From: Waddliaceae bacterium | GTDB lineage: Bacteria; Chlamydiota; Chlamydiia; Chlamydiales; Waddliaceae | NCBI GenBank assembly: GCA_963724325.1 | Contig: CAVRUH010000001.1 | Coordinates: 160,001 to 224,000, forward strand | Direction of reading: 5' to 3' | Length of the DNA: 64,000 bases | Shown: positions 2,791 through 54,387 of the stretch, piece by piece | Position numbering within the stretch: the stretch's first letter is position 1 | How the letters are laid out: each line of letters begins with the position of its first letter | Position numbers and translations under genes: made by a program | Notes under the pieces: generated by a model | Databases searched by the model: none | What the model saw: the letters and a program-made list of their open reading frames with translations, nothing else | Told to the model about the DNA's origin: nothing

Positions 2791-2868
2791 TATACGCATC
2801 AACCTAAAATATCTTTTACCACAGAGAACACAAGAGAGATCATTGAGTATAAAATAGCTCTGTGCTAC
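2791..2868. mobile_element. Partial MITE family B (IS231-like end), interrupted by MITE A
   Basis: TATACGCATCAACCTAAAA...ACCACAGAGAACACAAGAGAGATCATTGAG matches the reverse complement of the B copies at 36656-37091 and 47435-47577. Confidence 0.8.
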
Positions 2869-3109
2869 GTAAGCGTCAAACCGGAGCCGTTGCCTAACTC
2901 AACGCTCAGTCTAATTTGGAGTGACCTAATTCATTAGGTCTTTTTCAGGGCTGAATTTATTCGGCCCTGTGCATGGCAAGATTTCGCCATTCACCTAAGG
3001 AGGGCAAGGTGTCGCCCTCCACCGAGCCGAATAAATTCGGCTCGGAAAAAGACCCAATAAATTGGGTCACTCCAAACCGGAAATACGTAAGCGTCAAACT
3101 AACCCATCC
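2869..3109 (+). mobile_element. MITE family A (IS66-like GTAAGCG end), truncated copy
   Basis: Near-identical to 9147-9386 and to the reverse complement of 36737-37041; has multiple internal hairpins and lacks most of the terminal 87-bp hairpin. Confidence 0.85.
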
Positions 3110-9146: not shown

Positions 9147-9386
9147 GTAAGCGTCAAACCGGAGCCGTTGCCTAACTCAACGCTCAGTCTAATTTGAGAG
9201 TGACCAAATTCATTAGGTCTTTTTCAGGGCTGAATTTATTCGGCCCTGTGCATGGCAAGATTTCGCCATTCACCTAAGGAGGGCAAGGTGTCGCCCTCCA
9301 CCGAGCCGAATAAATTCGGCTCGGAAAAAGACCCAATAAATTGGGTCACTCCAAACCGGAAATACGTAAGCGTCAAACTAACCCAT
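9147..9386 (+). mobile_element. MITE family A, truncated copy
   Basis: Starts GTAAGCGTCAAACCGGAG and ends GTAAGCGTCAAACTAACCCAT; nearly identical to 2869-3107. Confidence 0.85.
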
Positions 9387-34748: not shown

Positions 34749-35690
34749 ATGAAAATATCTGTTGGGGCGAGGAGCTCGCCTCTGTCTAGAGCGCAGGTGA
34801 CTGAAGTGTTGACTGAATTGCGACAATACTATCCTGAAATTGCTTTTGAGACAACTTTGGTGACAACTACCGGGGATCACGACCAAAAAACATCACTCAG
34901 AACGCTTGATAAAACCGATTTTTTCACAAAAGAGATCGATCACCTTCTTTTAAATCGAGAATGCCGCATTGGCGTTCATTCAGCAAAAGACCTTCCTGAT
35001 CCCATTCCTGATGGTTTATCAATTATTGCAGTGACAGAAGGTGTTGATTCATCCGATTCCCTTGTTTTGCCTCCAGGTTGCACTTTAAAACCGGGAGATA
35101 CCATTGCCACATCATCCGAGAGACGAGAAGAAAGTGTTCGACAGCTATGCTCCGATCTAAATTTTGTCGATATTCGTGGAACAATCGGTCAAAGGCTGGA
35201 AAAACTCAATGACGGCAAGATTCAAGGAGTAGTCATCGCTGAAGCTGCTCTCATTAGACTCGGATGGACACACCTAAATCGCATCACTCTTCCAGGAACC
35301 ACTACACCCGGCCAAGGCCAACTCGCAGTATTAGCCAGAAAAAATGATCAAGAAATACAAGATTTTTTTGAATGCATTGATTCCCGAAAAAAATGCCTCT
35401 ATTTAGGTCTAGATATACCCCAAAATACTTTGACAACAAGATATGTTCACTGCCCTATCATCAAAATTGTTCCCCGAAAAATTGAAACATACCCGGAAAT
35501 TGCGTCATTCACCCACGTTATTTTTACCAGTAAAACTTCAGTTAAGATCTTCTTTGACCATTTTAAAGAGTTAAACGACAAAATTATTCTTTCAGTTGGA
35601 AAAAAAACGACACAAAAGCTTTTATCGTTAGGCATCCCGTCTCTTTCACTGCAGAAGATGAATGTTCGGAAGGGATCGTCTCAATGCTAG
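34749..35690 (+). CDS. hemC: Hydroxymethylbilane synthase fused to the N-terminal half of uroporphyrinogen-III synthase
   Basis: R.S.L...Q, T.GD, FTKEI, VHSAKD, TSS.RR, IRG; tail HVIFTSKTSV...VGKKT is HemD-like. Confidence 0.88.
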   Translation: MKISVGARSSPLSRAQVTEVLTELRQYYPEIAFETTLVTTTGDHDQKTSLRTLDKTDFFTKEIDHLLLNRECRIGVHSAKDLPDPIPDGLSIIAVTEGVDSSDSLVLPPGCTLKPGDTIATSSERREESVRQLCSDLNFVDIRGTIGQRLEKLNDGKIQGVVIAEAALIRLGWTHLNRITLPGTTTPGQGQLAVLARKNDQEIQDFFECIDSRKKCLYLGLDIPQNTLTTRYVHCPIIKIVPRKIETYPEIASFTHVIFTSKTSVKIFFDHFKELNDKIILSVGKKTTQKLLSLGIPSLSLQKMNVRKGSSQC

Positions 35691-36016
35691 AACAAATGGA
35701 TTTAACCAACGCCAAAATACTATGGCCCCATTCGGTATTATCCAGAGGAGTAATCAAGGACTTTTTGGGTGATAAATGCACAGACTGGATTTTATATGAC
35801 ACCGTTTTTAACGAACCTTATTCTCATCTGAATCTTAACGATTTTGATGAAATAATGTTTACAAGTCCATCCACAGTCGATGCTTTTGCCCATTTTTTCA
35901 AGGAACCGCCGAAAGATATAATTTTGACTCCAATCGGACGTGTCACTTGTGCTTATTTGTCAAATCAGACAGAATGGAACAAAAACAAGGAGTTTAATCA
36001 TGCCGTTGAAGTTTGA
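35633..36016 (+). CDS. hemD: C-terminal half of HemD (frameshifted continuation of the hemC-hemD fusion)
   Basis: [27 protein letters not shown] in the -1 frame. Confidence 0.7.
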
Positions 36017-36612
36017 ATTGCCACCGCTCCCATATGGATTGGGAGATCTCGAACCTGTGATCAGCAAAGAGATCATGGATTTGCACTATAACAAACACCA
36101 TAATGCATATCTTCAAAACCTAAATAAGGCTTTGGAACAGTACGAAGAGGCTGAAAAGAACAAAGATGTTGCGAAAATGGTTGCGTTGCAGCCTGCACTT
36201 AAGTTCAATGGAGGCGGATTCGTCAACCACAACATTTTCTGGACAAATCTTTCTCCAAAAAATAAAGATGGCGGAACTCCTCCTAGCGGACCTTTGGCAG
36301 ATGCCATTACAAAAGACTTTGGATCACTCGATCAACTAGTCCAAAAGTTTAGCGCAAAAACCATTGCTATCCAAGGTTCCGGTTGGGGCTGGCTAGGACT
36401 AAATAAGGAGATCGGGGAAACTTGAAATCGGAACAACTTCCAATCAAGATCCAGCCTCGACTTTAGGATTGGTCCCCCTGCTCGGTGTCGATGTTTGGGA
36501 ACATGCCTACTACCTCCAGTACAAAAACGTACGGGCCGACTATGTCAAAATGATTTGGGAAATCGTCAACTGGAAAAACGTTGCCGAAAGGTTCCAGTCA
36601 GCTAGTAAGTAA
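36000..36612 (+). CDS. Fe/Mn superoxide dismutase, frameshift at about 36413-36417
   Basis: [28 protein letters not shown], then NQD and DVWEHAYY in another frame. Confidence 0.9.
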
Positions 36613-36623
36613 TCTCTTAAAAA

Positions 36624-36655
36624 GGACCAAAAGGACATTTATGTCCCTTTGGTCC
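36624..36655. terminator. Hairpin after sod; insertion target of MITE B
   Basis: GGACCAAAAGGACAT-TT-ATGTCCCTTTGGTCC. Confidence 0.55.
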
Positions 36656-37091
36656 CATACACATCAACTTAAAAGCATTTTTAACACCCAGTTCACAGAG
36701 GTATCACAGAGTTATTTTATACTTAATGATCTCTCTGTAAGCGTCAAACTAACCCATCCTGATATTTGCCTTCGCCATAGCGAAGCGAAGGCAAATATCG
36801 GGATGGGTTAGTTTGACGCTTACGTATTTCCGGTTTGGAGTGACCCAATTTGTTGGGTCTTTTTCCGAGCAGAATTTATTCGGCTCGGTGGAGGGCGACA
36901 CCTTGCCCTCCTTGGGTGAATGGCAAAATCTTGCCATGCACAGGGCCGAATAAATTCGGCCCTGAAAAAGACCTAATGAATTAGGTCACTCCAAATTAGA
37001 CTGAGCGTTGAGTTAGGCAACGATTCCGGTTTGACGCTTACATCTCTCTTGTGTTCTTTGTGGTAAAAGACATTTTAGGTTGATGCGTATG
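36656..37091. mobile_element. MITE family B (IS4/IS231-like ends, 11-bp TSD) carrying nested MITE A
   Basis: TIRs CATACACATCAACTTAAAA / TTTTAGGTTGATGCGTATG; direct repeat CCCTTTGGTCC at 36645-36655 and 37092-37102. Confidence 0.88.
36737..37041 (-). mobile_element. MITE family A, complete copy (IS66-like ends, 8-bp TSD)
   Basis: Ends GTAAGCGTCAAAC / GTTTGACGCTTAC; direct repeat ATCTCTCT at 36729-36736 and 37042-37049; 305 bp. Confidence 0.9.
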
Positions 37092-37109
37092 CCCTTTGGT
37101 CCTATAGCT

Positions 37110-37787
37110 TTATGCATATTGCTTAGTTTTCCTAAGGAGAATAATGTTCCTTGCGTAGGGAATGAGGCCAAAGCTAAAATGAGTGATGCTTACAATGTCT
37201 TGAATTCTGATGAAGTAAATCAAAGAAAGAAGACTTCCAGCAATGCTTAACCACCAAAAAGTGGGGCCAAGTTCGCTTTTCTTTGTTTTTTCAATCTGCC
37301 ACCATTGAATCCAAAGTCGGCTGGCAAATAAAAGTCCACCCAATGACCCCAGAATATGCCATGATATGTGATGATACTGTCTAGCAACATCCCAAAGTTT
37401 TGTCGGAGTTCGGATCCAATCGATTTCCCCAATAACAAAATAACTCTGTCCCAAAAAAGCCAAAGTAACAAGACTAATCGAGGCGCCAAGATACAAAAAA
37501 ACAGAGCTCAAAGGTTGAATGCCATCTTTTTTCATCAAATTCAGATTTCTCCATGAAATAATAGCATTTCCTGTCTGGAGTATCGCAAAGGGATATTGCA
37601 CTTGTACAAAATAATGAAGTAACAAAAGGATATTTCCAGCAAGAGATAATCGCCAAAATGTTCTTCCTACATATGATTCCTGTCTTTTCTCACTTTGAAA
37701 CCATTGGACGAGCATTCTTAATGTAAAAAATATCGACGGAAGGAGTCCTAAAGGATAATATAAAAATGGTCTCCAATCTTCAAACAT
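37110..37787 (-). CDS. Lipid-A-disaccharide synthase N-terminal (LAB_N) domain membrane protein
   Basis: Two repeats of F..R...QW...E....S.....FW.LS..G. Confidence 0.85.
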   Translation of the reverse strand: MFEDWRPFLYYPLGLLPSIFFTLRMLVQWFQSEKRQESYVGRTFWRLSLAGNILLLLHYFVQVQYPFAILQTGNAIISWRNLNLMKKDGIQPLSSVFLYLGASISLVTLAFLGQSYFVIGEIDWIRTPTKLWDVARQYHHISWHILGSLGGLLFASRLWIQWWQIEKTKKSELGPTFWWLSIAGSLLSLIYFIRIQDIVSITHFSFGLIPYARNIILLRKTKQYA

Positions 37788-47393: not shown

Positions 47394-47690
47394 AAAACAG
47401 GATATGCAGGATCGCAAGCGGCAGGATATGAAGGCATACGCATCAACTTTAAAAAATTTTAACACCGAGTTCACCGAGAAAACAGAGATAACAGAGAGAA
47501 CTATTTTACACTCAATGATCTCTTTTGTGTTCTCTCGTGTTCTCTGTGGTAAAAATTATTTTAGGTTGATACGTATGGGATATGAAGGATGATAGGAAGA
47601 TGATGTCAATGACTTTTTATTTTAAAGCAGGGTAAGAAGTTACATAAATCATTCATATCCTGCCGCTTGCGATCTTGCATATCCTGTTTT
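47394..47690. repeat. Inverted pair of family C repeats (47394-47432 and 47652-47690)
   Basis: AAAACAGGATATGCA(G/A)GATCGCAAGCGGCAGGATATGAA, 38/39 identical in inverted orientation. Confidence 0.8.
47435..47577. mobile_element. MITE family B, intact 143-bp copy with 11-bp TSD
   Basis: CATACGCATCAACTTTAAA...TTTTAGGTTGATACGTATG; direct repeat GGATATGAAGG at 47424-47434 and 47578-47588. Confidence 0.88.
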
Positions 47691-51254: not shown

Positions 51255-52740
51255 CTCAAGTTTGGCGGTTTCTCATATTTTTGAGAAAAAACTTTCAAAA
51301 AAAAGAGAAGACACATAATATTTTTGTTTTTCACGCAAATGAGGACAAAAAAATATGTGCCTTCTCGAAACTTTTCTATCACTAGTCTCCCTATGGAGAC
51401 CAGCATTTTGTAAACAAGACACCTTTAGAAGAGTCAAAGATCACGCTGTCGCGACTGTTTGCTCCTTGGGACGCCATACGATCACAAATCTTATCATTTG
51501 GCTTGGAAAAGATCAATTAGATCCTACAGCCGATTATAGATTATACAATGAATATAAGTGGAATGTCGAGGATCTTTTTAACCCTTTATTGGAAAAGGCA
51601 ATGCCGTTTTTTGGAGATGATTATGTTGTTGTTGGAGCCGACGACACTCGTATTCGCAAAAGAGGAAAGAAGATCCCTGGAACATCTTGGGGAAGGGATC
51701 CATTATCACCCCCATTTCAAGTTAATTTAATGTGGGGGCAAAGATTTCTTCAATTTTCATTTCTACTTCCTATGTACAATCATTCATCAGTCAGTGCACG
51801 AGCATTGCCTATAAGATTTATTCATACTCCTCCTTTAACAAAACCTGGTAAAAGAGCAAATGCAGCAGAAATATTAACATACAAGAAATTATGTAAGACT
51901 CAAAATTTATCGACTCGGTATATAGAAGAGGTAAGAAAATTGAGGGAGCATTTAGATGCAATAGGGTGTACAAAAAAACAACTTATGGTCACTGACGGTA
52001 GTTTCTGTAATAGAATTTGCATGAATTTAAACATGCCAGGAGTTGAAGCACTAGCACGCGCCAGAAAGAATTCAAAACTATGTTATCGGGCTGAAGGCAA
52101 TGGTAGACGCACATATGGGGTTAATAAATTCACTCCAGAGCAAGTACGTCAAGATGATAGTATACCATGGCAGTCTGCAATTTTCTTTTATGGTGGTGAA
52201 TGGAGAAGAATAAGATTTAAAGTATTGCGAGATGTATTATGGCAATCTGGCACAAAGACTAGACCGATGAGATTATTGGTCGTAGCACCGTTGCCTTATG
52301 TGAAAAATGGGATTAGAAATTACCGCCAACCCGCCTATCTATTAACAACTGATCTCGAGGCCACAGCAGAATTCCTTCTTCAGAGTTATTTAGACAGATG
52401 GCAGATAGAAGTAAACTTCAGAGAGGAAAAATCTGTATTGGGTGTTGGAGAGGCCCAAGTATGGAGTGAAAAGTCAGCTGAAAGACAGCCATCATTTAGG
52501 GTTGCAGTATATAGTGCCTTATTATTGTCTAGCATTCTGAAATACAAGGATGTGCCACCAATTGATGAAGAGATTCCGAAATGGAGAGACAAGCCACAAA
52601 GAAATACCTGTAGAGCATTAATAGGGATGATTAGAAGTGAAACTCTAGAAAATATAGAAAGTATAATAGATTTAGAATTAACTAGGCCGATGTTATCGGC
52701 AATTTTTCGAAAAGCAGCCTAAAAAACCGCCAAACTTGAG
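51255..52740 (+). mobile_element. Insertion sequence, IS4 superfamily (IS701-like), copy 1, 1486 bp
   Basis: 17-bp TIR CTCAAGTTTGGCGGTTT; flanked by 23-bp direct repeats at 51232-51254 and 52741-52763. Confidence 0.92.
51355..52722 (+). CDS. DDE transposase (IS701/IS4-like)
   Basis: ADDT...K.G, TDG.F, and Y-x2-R-x3-E-x6-K (YLDRWQIEVNFREEK). Confidence 0.92.
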   Translation: MCLLETFLSLVSLWRPAFCKQDTFRRVKDHAVATVCSLGRHTITNLIIWLGKDQLDPTADYRLYNEYKWNVEDLFNPLLEKAMPFFGDDYVVVGADDTRIRKRGKKIPGTSWGRDPLSPPFQVNLMWGQRFLQFSFLLPMYNHSSVSARALPIRFIHTPPLTKPGKRANAAEILTYKKLCKTQNLSTRYIEEVRKLREHLDAIGCTKKQLMVTDGSFCNRICMNLNMPGVEALARARKNSKLCYRAEGNGRRTYGVNKFTPEQVRQDDSIPWQSAIFFYGGEWRRIRFKVLRDVLWQSGTKTRPMRLLVVAPLPYVKNGIRNYRQPAYLLTTDLEATAEFLLQSYLDRWQIEVNFREEKSVLGVGEAQVWSEKSAERQPSFRVAVYSALLLSSILKYKDVPPIDEEIPKWRDKPQRNTCRALIGMIRSETLENIESIIDLELTRPMLSAIFRKAA

Positions 52741-52901: not shown

Positions 52902-54387
52902 CTCAAGTTTGGCGGTTTTTTAGGCTGCTTTTCGAAAAATTGCCGATAACATCGGCCTAGTTAATTCTAAATCTATTATACTTTCTATATTTTCTAGAGT
53001 TTCACTTCTAATCATCCCTATTAATGCTCTACAGGTATTTCTTTGTGGCTTGTCTCTCCATTTCGGAATCTCTTCATCAATTGGTGGCACATCCTTGTAT
53101 TTCAGAATGCTAGACAATAATAAGGCACTATATACTGCAACCCTAAATGATGGCTGTCTTTCAGCTGACTTTTCACTCCATACTTGGGCCTCTCCAACAC
53201 CCAATACAGATTTTTCCTCTCTGAAGTTTACTTCTATCTGCCATCTGTCTAAATAACTCTGAAGAAGGAATTCTGCTGTGGCCTCGAGATCAGTTGTTAA
53301 TAGATAGGCGGGTTGGCGGTAATTTCTAATCCCATTTTTCACATAAGGCAACGGTGCTACGACTAATAATCTCATCGGTCTAGTCTTTGTGCCAGATTGC
53401 CATAATACATCTCGCAATACTTTAAATCTTATTCTTCTCCATTCACCACCATAAAAGAAAATTGCAGACTGCCATGGTATACTATCATCTTGACGTACTT
53501 GCTCTGGAGTGAATTTATTAACCCCATATGTGCGTCTACCATTGCCTTCAGCCCGATAACATAGTTTTGAATTCTTTCTGGCGCGTGCTAGTGCTTCAAC
53601 TCCTGGCATGTTTAAATTCATGCAAATTCTATTACAGAAACTACCGTCAGTGACCATAAGTTGTTTTTTTGTACACCCTATTGCATCTAAATGCTCCCTC
53701 AATTTTCTTACCTCTTCTATATACCGAGTCGATAAATTTTGAGTCTTACATAATTTCTTGTATGTTAATATTTCTGCTGCATTTGCTCTTTTACCAGGTT
53801 TTGTTAAAGGAGGAGTATGAATAAATCTTATAGGCAATGCTCGTGCACTGACTGATGAATGATTGTACATAGGAAGTAGAAATGAAAATTGAAGAAATCT
53901 TTGCCCCCACATTAAATTAACTTGAAATGGGGGTGATAATGGATCCCTTCCCCAAGATGTTCCAGGGATCTTCTTTCCTCTTTTGCGAATACGAGTGTCG
54001 TCGGCTCCAACAACAACATAATCATCTCCAAAAAACGGCATTGCCTTTTCCAATAAAGGGTTAAAAAGATCCTCGACATTCCACTTATATTCATTGTATA
54101 ATCTATAATCGGCTGTAGGATCTAATTGATCTTTTCCAAGCCAAATGATAAGATTTGTGATCGTATGGCGTCCCAAGGAGCAAACAGTCGCGACAGCGTG
54201 ATCTTTGACTCTTCTAAAGGTGTCTTGTTTACAAAATGCTGGTCTCCATAGGGAGACTAGTGATAGAAAAGTTTCGAGAAGGCACATATTTTTTTGTCCT
54301 CATTTGCGTGAAAAACAAAAATATTATGTGTCTTCTCTTTTTTTTGAAAGTTTTTTCTCAAAAATATGAGAAACCGCCAAACTTGAG
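52902..54387 (-). mobile_element. Insertion sequence copy 2, inverted, 1486 bp
   Basis: Same TIRs; 23-bp direct repeats at 52879-52901 and 54388-54410; one synonymous difference from copy 1 noticed (52278 vs 53364). Confidence 0.92.
52920..54287 (-). CDS. DDE transposase, protein identical to 51355-52722
   Basis: Identical 455-aa translation in the ORF track. Confidence 0.92.
   Translation of the reverse strand: MCLLETFLSLVSLWRPAFCKQDTFRRVKDHAVATVCSLGRHTITNLIIWLGKDQLDPTADYRLYNEYKWNVEDLFNPLLEKAMPFFGDDYVVVGADDTRIRKRGKKIPGTSWGRDPLSPPFQVNLMWGQRFLQFSFLLPMYNHSSVSARALPIRFIHTPPLTKPGKRANAAEILTYKKLCKTQNLSTRYIEEVRKLREHLDAIGCTKKQLMVTDGSFCNRICMNLNMPGVEALARARKNSKLCYRAEGNGRRTYGVNKFTPEQVRQDDSIPWQSAIFFYGGEWRRIRFKVLRDVLWQSGTKTRPMRLLVVAPLPYVKNGIRNYRQPAYLLTTDLEATAEFLLQSYLDRWQIEVNFREEKSVLGVGEAQVWSEKSAERQPSFRVAVYSALLLSSILKYKDVPPIDEEIPKWRDKPQRNTCRALIGMIRSETLENIESIIDLELTRPMLSAIFRKAA

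Follow-up and report, generated by a model that had tools for sequence, protein, structure and literature searches.

Nested IS66-type and IS231-type MITEs with a REPIN cargo in an intergenic hairpin of a Waddliaceae bacterium

Descriptions exist of MITEs with ends matching those of insertion sequences, of IS4 elements inserted in REPs, of MIC231 and of REPINs, and the nesting of such elements is textbook knowledge. In the IS66 family an 8-bp target duplication is the rule, to which the data below add one element (L125). The IS66 family, with ISPsko1, ISPa75 and the passenger-carrying tIS66, is covered by PMC12888890, in which ends of named IS66 elements are given. The IS231 signature comprises CAT, AA at positions 11-12, TAA at positions 15-17 and direct repeats of 10-12 bp (PMC2266710, Table 1), and for MIC231 trans-mobilisation has been reported (PMC2266710, PMC6199540). 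REPs can carry a GTAG tag (PMC3733652). Tandem REPINs are known as well, for which the part of PMC3337134 considered here puts forward no mechanism.

Our analysis concerned a window of 64,000 nucleotides (C1:160001-224000 of a 2.37-Mb assembly that is 84.6% complete), which also encodes an ATP/ADP translocase, in keeping with an environmental chlamydia. Here an insertion stack sits between sod (stop codon 36610-36612) and a lipid A-related gene in convergent orientation (stop codon 37110-37112). Very probably the stack results from two ordinary insertions of MITEs mobilised in trans, one nested in the other, the inner element being a composite with a REPIN as passenger.

The insertion stack and its host hairpin

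The features of the locus, together with the intact copy used for comparison, are as follows.

36000..36612, plus strand: sod, Fe/Mn superoxide dismutase (Pfam Sod_Fe_N/C; reading frame)
36624..36655, no strand: host hairpin, layer 1; the A-run at its left is a T-run on the minus strand; kept intact by the duplication
36645..36655, plus strand: left copy of the 11-bp target duplication of MITE B (exact repeat)
36656..36736, plus strand: left part of MITE B with its CAT end; its final 8 bases form the left copy of the duplication of MITE A (duplication, alignment)
36737..37041, plus strand: MITE A, 305 bp, IS66-type ends (duplication, folding, copy census, end comparison)
36737..36823, no strand: palindrome of 87 bp with 39-bp arms and two IS66-type ends, the right one being the internal end of A (repeat search, folding)
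36824..37041, plus strand: 218-bp unit, found in tandem arrays elsewhere in the genome; ends with the second right end
36837..36992, no strand: REPIN of family D, 156 bp; two inverted GGAG-tagged REP hairpins and a spacer
37042..37091, plus strand: right part of MITE B; its initial 8 bases form the right copy of the duplication of A (duplication, alignment)
37092..37102, plus strand: right copy of the 11-bp duplication of B (exact repeat)
37110..37787, minus strand: convergent gene encoding a lipid A biosynthesis N-terminal domain; 7 bases separate its stop from the duplication of B
47435..47577, plus strand: intact MITE B located in the REP-like repeat C and flanked by an exact 11-bp duplication of its own

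Both termini of MITE A start with GTAAGCGTCAAAC, and the element is flanked by the exact 8-bp duplication ATCTCTCT at 36729-36736 and 37042-37049. Flank repeats of 4-12 bp were tried and only 8 bp gave an exact match, whose probability by chance from the local composition is 1.8e-5. Removal of A restores a MITE B of 123 bp, of which 105 out of 122 aligned columns are identical to the 143-bp copy at 47435-47577, the other differences being indels of 9, 10, 2 and 1 bases. The interrupted B (36656-37091) is in turn flanked by CCCTTTGGTCC at 36645-36655 and 37092-37102, an exact 11-bp duplication (chance probability 1.3e-7) derived from the 3' arm of the hairpin. The coordinates given in the original prediction from the sequence are all correct, as are its two duplications, the alignable B and the origin of the 11-mer. 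The three layers counted there hold as far as the nesting is concerned, but the count was too low, A itself being composite with its REPIN. The order of events, hairpin, then B, then A, can be read from the duplications as predicted and is supported by the divergence of the copies, which are 89% alike for B (17 copies) and 98.5% alike for the units of A (13 units).

An artefact of the repeat-rich long-read assembly is hardly credible as the origin of the stack. Homopolymer-type errors are present nearby, in sod, and the assembly has duplicated contig ends, but exact locus-specific duplications are found at both nesting levels. In addition, a short-read contig from an independent study matches 36442-36681 without any difference and thereby crosses the junction of hairpin and B, and the 218-bp joint of the A unit recurs in two short-read runs. 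At 36410, contigs assembled from short reads have one base fewer in two runs, so that the apparent frameshift in sod is very likely an assembly error. In the covered parts of four short-read runs no read joints skipping A or B occurred; the whole 447-bp stack is spanned by the assembly and by no independent piece. No empty allele was available from three relatives, in which sod and the convergent gene are not adjacent. Upstream of sod, hemC and hemD are split at window position 35684.

The host hairpin folds with a z-score of about -5 on both strands. Its stem of 14-15 pairs is followed by five T on the minus strand and stays below the rule of the terminator scan, which left this hairpin unlisted and reported two REP hairpins inside A instead. 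On the plus strand a T-run after the stem is absent, with or without B. Thus, the structure suits the convergent gene better than sod, and of the predicted terminator hairpin following sod the hairpin stood whereas its role as sod terminator did not. Resembling GGAC-armed hairpins outside open reading frames gave seven rows (six loci) in the genome, and a further site of this kind carries another B end, which possibly indicates a loose repeat family. The host hairpin may be a member of such a family and double as putative terminator of the convergent gene. A search of the whole window with Rfam models at gathering scores yielded no match and hence no known RNA family.

MITE B, its targets and its candidate transposase

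The ends of B gave 90 motif matches in the genome, of which 65 at 38 loci passed a stricter filter. For 25 left ends a right-end partner was found, and among duplication lengths of 5-15 bp these pairs peaked only at 11 bp (4 exact and 9 within two mismatches, compared to 1 at 10 bp). The remaining 16 pairings had no matching duplication, and in about seven of them the flanks are inverted on visual inspection. Recombination between copies would give such flanks, an explanation that has also been offered for mismatched flanks of ISRm22 (PMC1525189). Two of the inverted cases, the copies at C1:943005-943147 and C1:977401-977543, have apparently reciprocal flanks, suggesting a 34-kb inversion. The others, about five copies, show inverted rather than direct flanks.

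The assignment of B to the IS231 group was supported, as its ends fit the published signature exactly. The IS231 end given in the original prediction is real: an identical sequence adjoins an IS4 transposase gene of a Bacillus thuringiensis plasmid, and the ends of B share 15 of 17 bases with the end at this gene. G or C was found at positions 1, 2, 10 and 11 of the target in 54, 54, 52 and 58 of the 65 ends, respectively. The preferred 11-bp target has the form SSW-N5-WSS. One particular 11-mer flanks 13 of the 65 ends, in both orientations. Repeat C adjoins 37 of the 65 ends compared to 136 of 5000 random non-coding places, and 25 of the 38 loci lie in C compared to 342 of 4249 non-coding motif sites (8%). 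The number of loci in C may be inflated by copies amplified together with C, and the test for C overlaps with the target motif. There is strong evidence that B prefers repeat C as a landing pad, in line with the idea that earlier repeats serve this purpose; at the present locus, B entered a target outside C.

The same figures bear on the reading that B moves only as part of a C+B composite and merely inherits its 11-bp repeats. The recurrence of one 11-mer at many copies and the presence of tandem C+B units are compatible with it, but B occurs at two different sites of C and in either orientation, it has a different exact 11-mer outside C at this locus, and B-ended elements together with an autonomous partner exist in genomes that lack C. 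We therefore regard such a composite as very unlikely and keep to B as an element that is mobilised on its own ends.

A search for autonomous partners of both MITEs was the check proposed with the original prediction. They were found in other genomes, some of them chlamydial, but none in this assembly. With PF03050 no IS66 match was obtained, none of the 16 PF01609 matches is IS231-like, and tblastn with nine partner proteins at an E-value of 0.01 gave no match, results that hold for an assembly of 84.6% completeness. Hence, the driving transposases have been lost or are unassembled. For B, single matches to the end pattern occurred in 2 out of 300 relatives, neither beside a transposase within the 3-kb locus, and a scan of viral sequences gave one match, with no IS66 seen. 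In a genome collection the pattern matched 22 times: at three matches an IS4-type gene lies inward of the end, as seen by scanning for two of them and by eye for L039, four belong to short two-ended elements without matching direct flanks, and the rest are chance-like. Since the matches came from patterns built on the ends, independent evidence comes only from the genes that accompany them.

The B-end search led to the IS4 transposases of L043 (a broken copy in a Chlamydiales record) and L041, and a search with the protein found in this way matched 5 of 120 genomes of the order. Among these matches is L136, an intact IS4 element of 1563 bp encoding 474 amino acids (NF033592, 214 bits, cut-off 115). 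It neighbours a 345-bp MITE bearing the 17 terminal bases of B, and the 11-mer between the two is the one most used by B in the genome studied here; 58 B-like ends were counted in the genome of L136. The YREK motif is present in these B-type partners (L136, L041 and L043), all located in other genomes. Among plasmid proteins the best matches of L041 are IS4 transposases of Clostridium and Bacillus at 30-32%. L041 and L039 are IS231-like and carry a passenger gene matching Pfam DruA 3' of the transposase (L041 scanned, L039 by eye). Elements of 224-320 bp with B-like ends (L042, L048, L051 and L038) were observed in Chloroflexota, Planctomycetota and another chlamydia, so that this type of end makes MITEs in several phyla.

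MITE A, its REPIN cargo and the tandem arrays

Further copies and arrays of A are located at the following positions.

2791..3109, minus strand: second, independent insertion of A in B, some 35 bases away from the insertion point of the first; one side lost by deletion
9147..9386, minus strand: third copy of A in the window, with truncated palindrome (copy census)
C1:769361-774613, C7:385051-386593 and C11:29742-30657: A units in tandem arrays, the longest of 5.2 kb

MITE A is short, non-coding and strongly folding, and with 305 bp it is too small for tnpA, tnpB and tnpC, none of which it contains. From 57 end-motif matches about 17 loci were derived. Four of the eight two-ended copies have an exact 8-bp duplication, at four different targets and at no other length; the other four have no matching duplication. 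Hence, the duplications predicted for further copies exist in both families, but only in part of the pairs. Empty copies of B contain the 8-bp target of A a single time; among 17 intact copies, 9 have exactly ATG followed by ATCTCTCT. At the second insertion in B the deleted side makes a duplication unreadable. A was found in B at 2 of 14 mappable loci (P 0.017), and at 1 of 13 without the present locus (P 0.17). A preference of A for repeats was considered and not established, with P values of 0.10-0.17 once this locus is set aside; in this respect the landing-pad idea found no clear support for A. Shorter forms of A (234-300 bp) arise via collapse of the palindrome. A was not detected by blastn in 40 genomes of relatives, and its end pattern gave single matches in 2 out of 400.

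The predicted relation of A to IS66 was supported by autonomous elements in other genomes. A metagenome scan with the A end yielded 62 rows, comprising IS66 elements and a large MITE family; 41 of the rows stem from one assembly, in which one locus also encodes an ATP/ADP translocase. L116 is a complete IS66 element of 2162 bp with TnpB and TnpC, both ends of which share 19 terminal bases with the left end of A. In L084, of 2494 bp, 21 of 22 end bases are as in A. The proteins of both are IS66 by Pfam and NCBIfam. The chlamydial IS66 element L125 has ends similar to those of A and an exact 8-bp duplication. Of 120 genomes belonging to the same order, 24 have relatives of the IS66 TnpC. On these sequence comparisons, an IS66 transposase of this type may have moved A and an IS231-like one B.

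A third IS66-type end inside A, at 36811-36823, divides the element into two parts. A is a composite of the 87-bp palindrome and a unit carrying the 156-bp REPIN, each REP hairpin of which is a hairpin with T-run, one per strand. Family D, to which the REPIN belongs, is dispersed and extragenic and also occurs free outside A; 87 of its 153 half-sites have A-type flanks. The only Y1 transposase gene of the assembly directly adjoins a D array, and its score against the RAYT model NF047646 is borderline (79.3 bits, cut-off 80). Relatives of this RAYT-like gene exist in 12 of 120 other genomes. Ten of these loci were fetched, and all seven that were inspected for a tag are flanked by their own GGAG- or GTAG-tagged palindromes; the GGAG form, seen here at RAYT relatives, we take to be a variant of the REP tag. 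With an inverted doublet of tagged REPs and a cluster beside a RAYT-like gene, D has the layout that defines REPINs (PMC3116915). Since our searches found no A-like element without a REPIN, its capture is proposed rather than observed; it may have happened by entry of a REPIN into an IS66 MITE or by closure of two IS66 ends around a REPIN.

Arrays of the A unit contain 17, 7 and 3 copies; in the array of 17 the units measure 215/218 bp and one is interrupted by an IS. The head-to-tail joint of 218 bp is present in short-read contigs of two out of four runs and hence is not a long-read artefact, although these contigs cannot separate arrays from circles. An origin peculiar to A was rejected, because C, D, E and B form arrays too (78 tandem repeats listed). 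Slippage or unequal exchange at a 13-bp direct repeat would build such arrays, and a 205-bp variant using another short repeat fits this mechanism. A transposase origin of the 215-bp junction was not derivable; the simplest assumption is a single loss of 3 bp followed by amplification.

Whether A spreads through its REPIN instead, driven by a RAYT and with the IS66 ends as relics, has to be judged from the same copies. The assembly contains an intact RAYT-like gene and no IS66 transposase, all A arrays include the REPIN, and one end has been lost in several copies. In contrast, the GTAA termini are the precise limits of dispersed copies, and the exact 8-bp duplications at four targets have the length seen in a chlamydial IS66. 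This makes RAYT-driven spread unlikely for A as a whole, although it may account for the tandem arrays. For the dispersed copies we retain mobilisation in trans by an IS66 transposase.

Other mobile DNA also uses the palindromic repeats of this genome. An IS701-like element (1486 bp, 455 amino acids; NF049999, 137 bits, below the cut-off of 170) is located at 51255-52740 and 52902-54387 of the window and has eight two-ended copies in the genome. It enters at the hairpin foot and duplicates the whole palindrome of 22-27 bp, exactly so in seven of the eight copies; two copies lie within A/D hairpins. The duplication published for IS701 is 4 bp (PMC2266710). A group II intron (RF02005, RVT_1) was found at C7:331761, C7:341296 and C1:876338, each time at the same base of REP D; one of the three sites lies within an A array. 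Seven copies of large serine recombinase elements (e.g. C1:24262-25866) have repeat C at their flanks. In one metagenome assembly (L058-L117), 25 of 40 ends of an IS66 element and its MITEs share a flanking 8-mer in either orientation, the end of which coincides with the GGAG tag in a REP-like repeat; short-read collapse may inflate this count.

Proposed history and comparison with known systems

In the proposed history, an IS231-like transposase of the IS4 family would first have inserted B into the 3' arm of the intergenic hairpin between the convergent genes. This enzyme would prefer 11-bp targets of the form given above and in this genome mostly use repeat C. Later, an IS66 transposase would have inserted A into B. 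As A consists of IS66 ends around a REPIN of family D, the IS66 machinery would propagate a REPIN whose usual partner is a RAYT. The direct repeat formed by the internal and the terminal right end of A would then allow the 218-bp unit to amplify in tandem like other palindromic repeats here. As the hairpin is kept whole by the duplications and the REPIN provides hairpin/T-run sites on both strands, the stack probably is near neutral for the host.

Repeat C is common to a genome of the same genus (186 and 231 matches), in which B, D and A were not found. The locus allows successive waves of mobile elements to be read in their order in an obligate intracellular lineage, C followed by B and then A, and it adds two new MITE families with named candidate transposases. 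The REPIN apparently changed its vehicle, which bears on how REPINs and tandem arrays spread. Tentatively, we suggest that the IS66-ended A captured the REPIN and now spreads it without the RAYT, and that five otherwise unrelated systems (the IS231-like MITE, the IS66 MITE, the IS701-like IS, the group II intron and the serine recombinase element) share the same few palindromic repeats, with IS66 landing at a REP tag in a second chlamydia-like genome. In the open literature searched we found no IS66-derived MITE, no REPIN carried within a MITE or spread by one of the DDE type, no chlamydial MITEs and no targeting of REPs by IS66, although prior descriptions may exist.

A resembles MITEs in general in being short, non-coding and strongly folding (PMC3184786, as far as considered here). 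It shares with the IS66 family the GTAAGCGTC termini, with 9 bases in common with the ISPsko1 end shown in PMC12888890. The 8-bp duplication, as in L125, is a further likeness. In contrast to IS66 elements, A has no tnpA, tnpB or tnpC and three ends instead of two, its passenger is a REPIN rather than a gene, and it forms tandem arrays.

B shares the end signature, the 11-bp duplication and G/C-bordered targets with IS231 and MIC231 (PMC2266710, PMC6199540). However, MIC231 elements are 0.7-3 kb long and contain genes, whereas B has 130-145 bp and no gene. The home of IS231 is the Bacillus cereus group, whereas B resides in chlamydiae; L041 is only about 30% identical to Bacillus proteins and may belong to ISH8 or a sister subgroup. 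As to targets, ISRm22, an IS4-family element, as well as ISPa11 and ISPpu9/10 (PMC1525189) are like B in inserting into REPs and in showing mismatched flanks, but B, which does the targeting here, is a MITE. In the main text of that paper the word IS66 is absent.

Family D agrees with the REPINs and RAYTs covered in the parts of PMC3116915, PMC3337134 and PMC3733652 considered here in its inverted REP doublet, its tetranucleotide tag, its cluster beside a Y1 transposase gene and its tandem arrays including flanks. It differs from the REPINs known from these sources in that more than half of its half-sites lie inside an IS66-ended carrier. A and B are otherwise of known kinds, and the modest novelty of the locus is the REPIN as the cargo of A.
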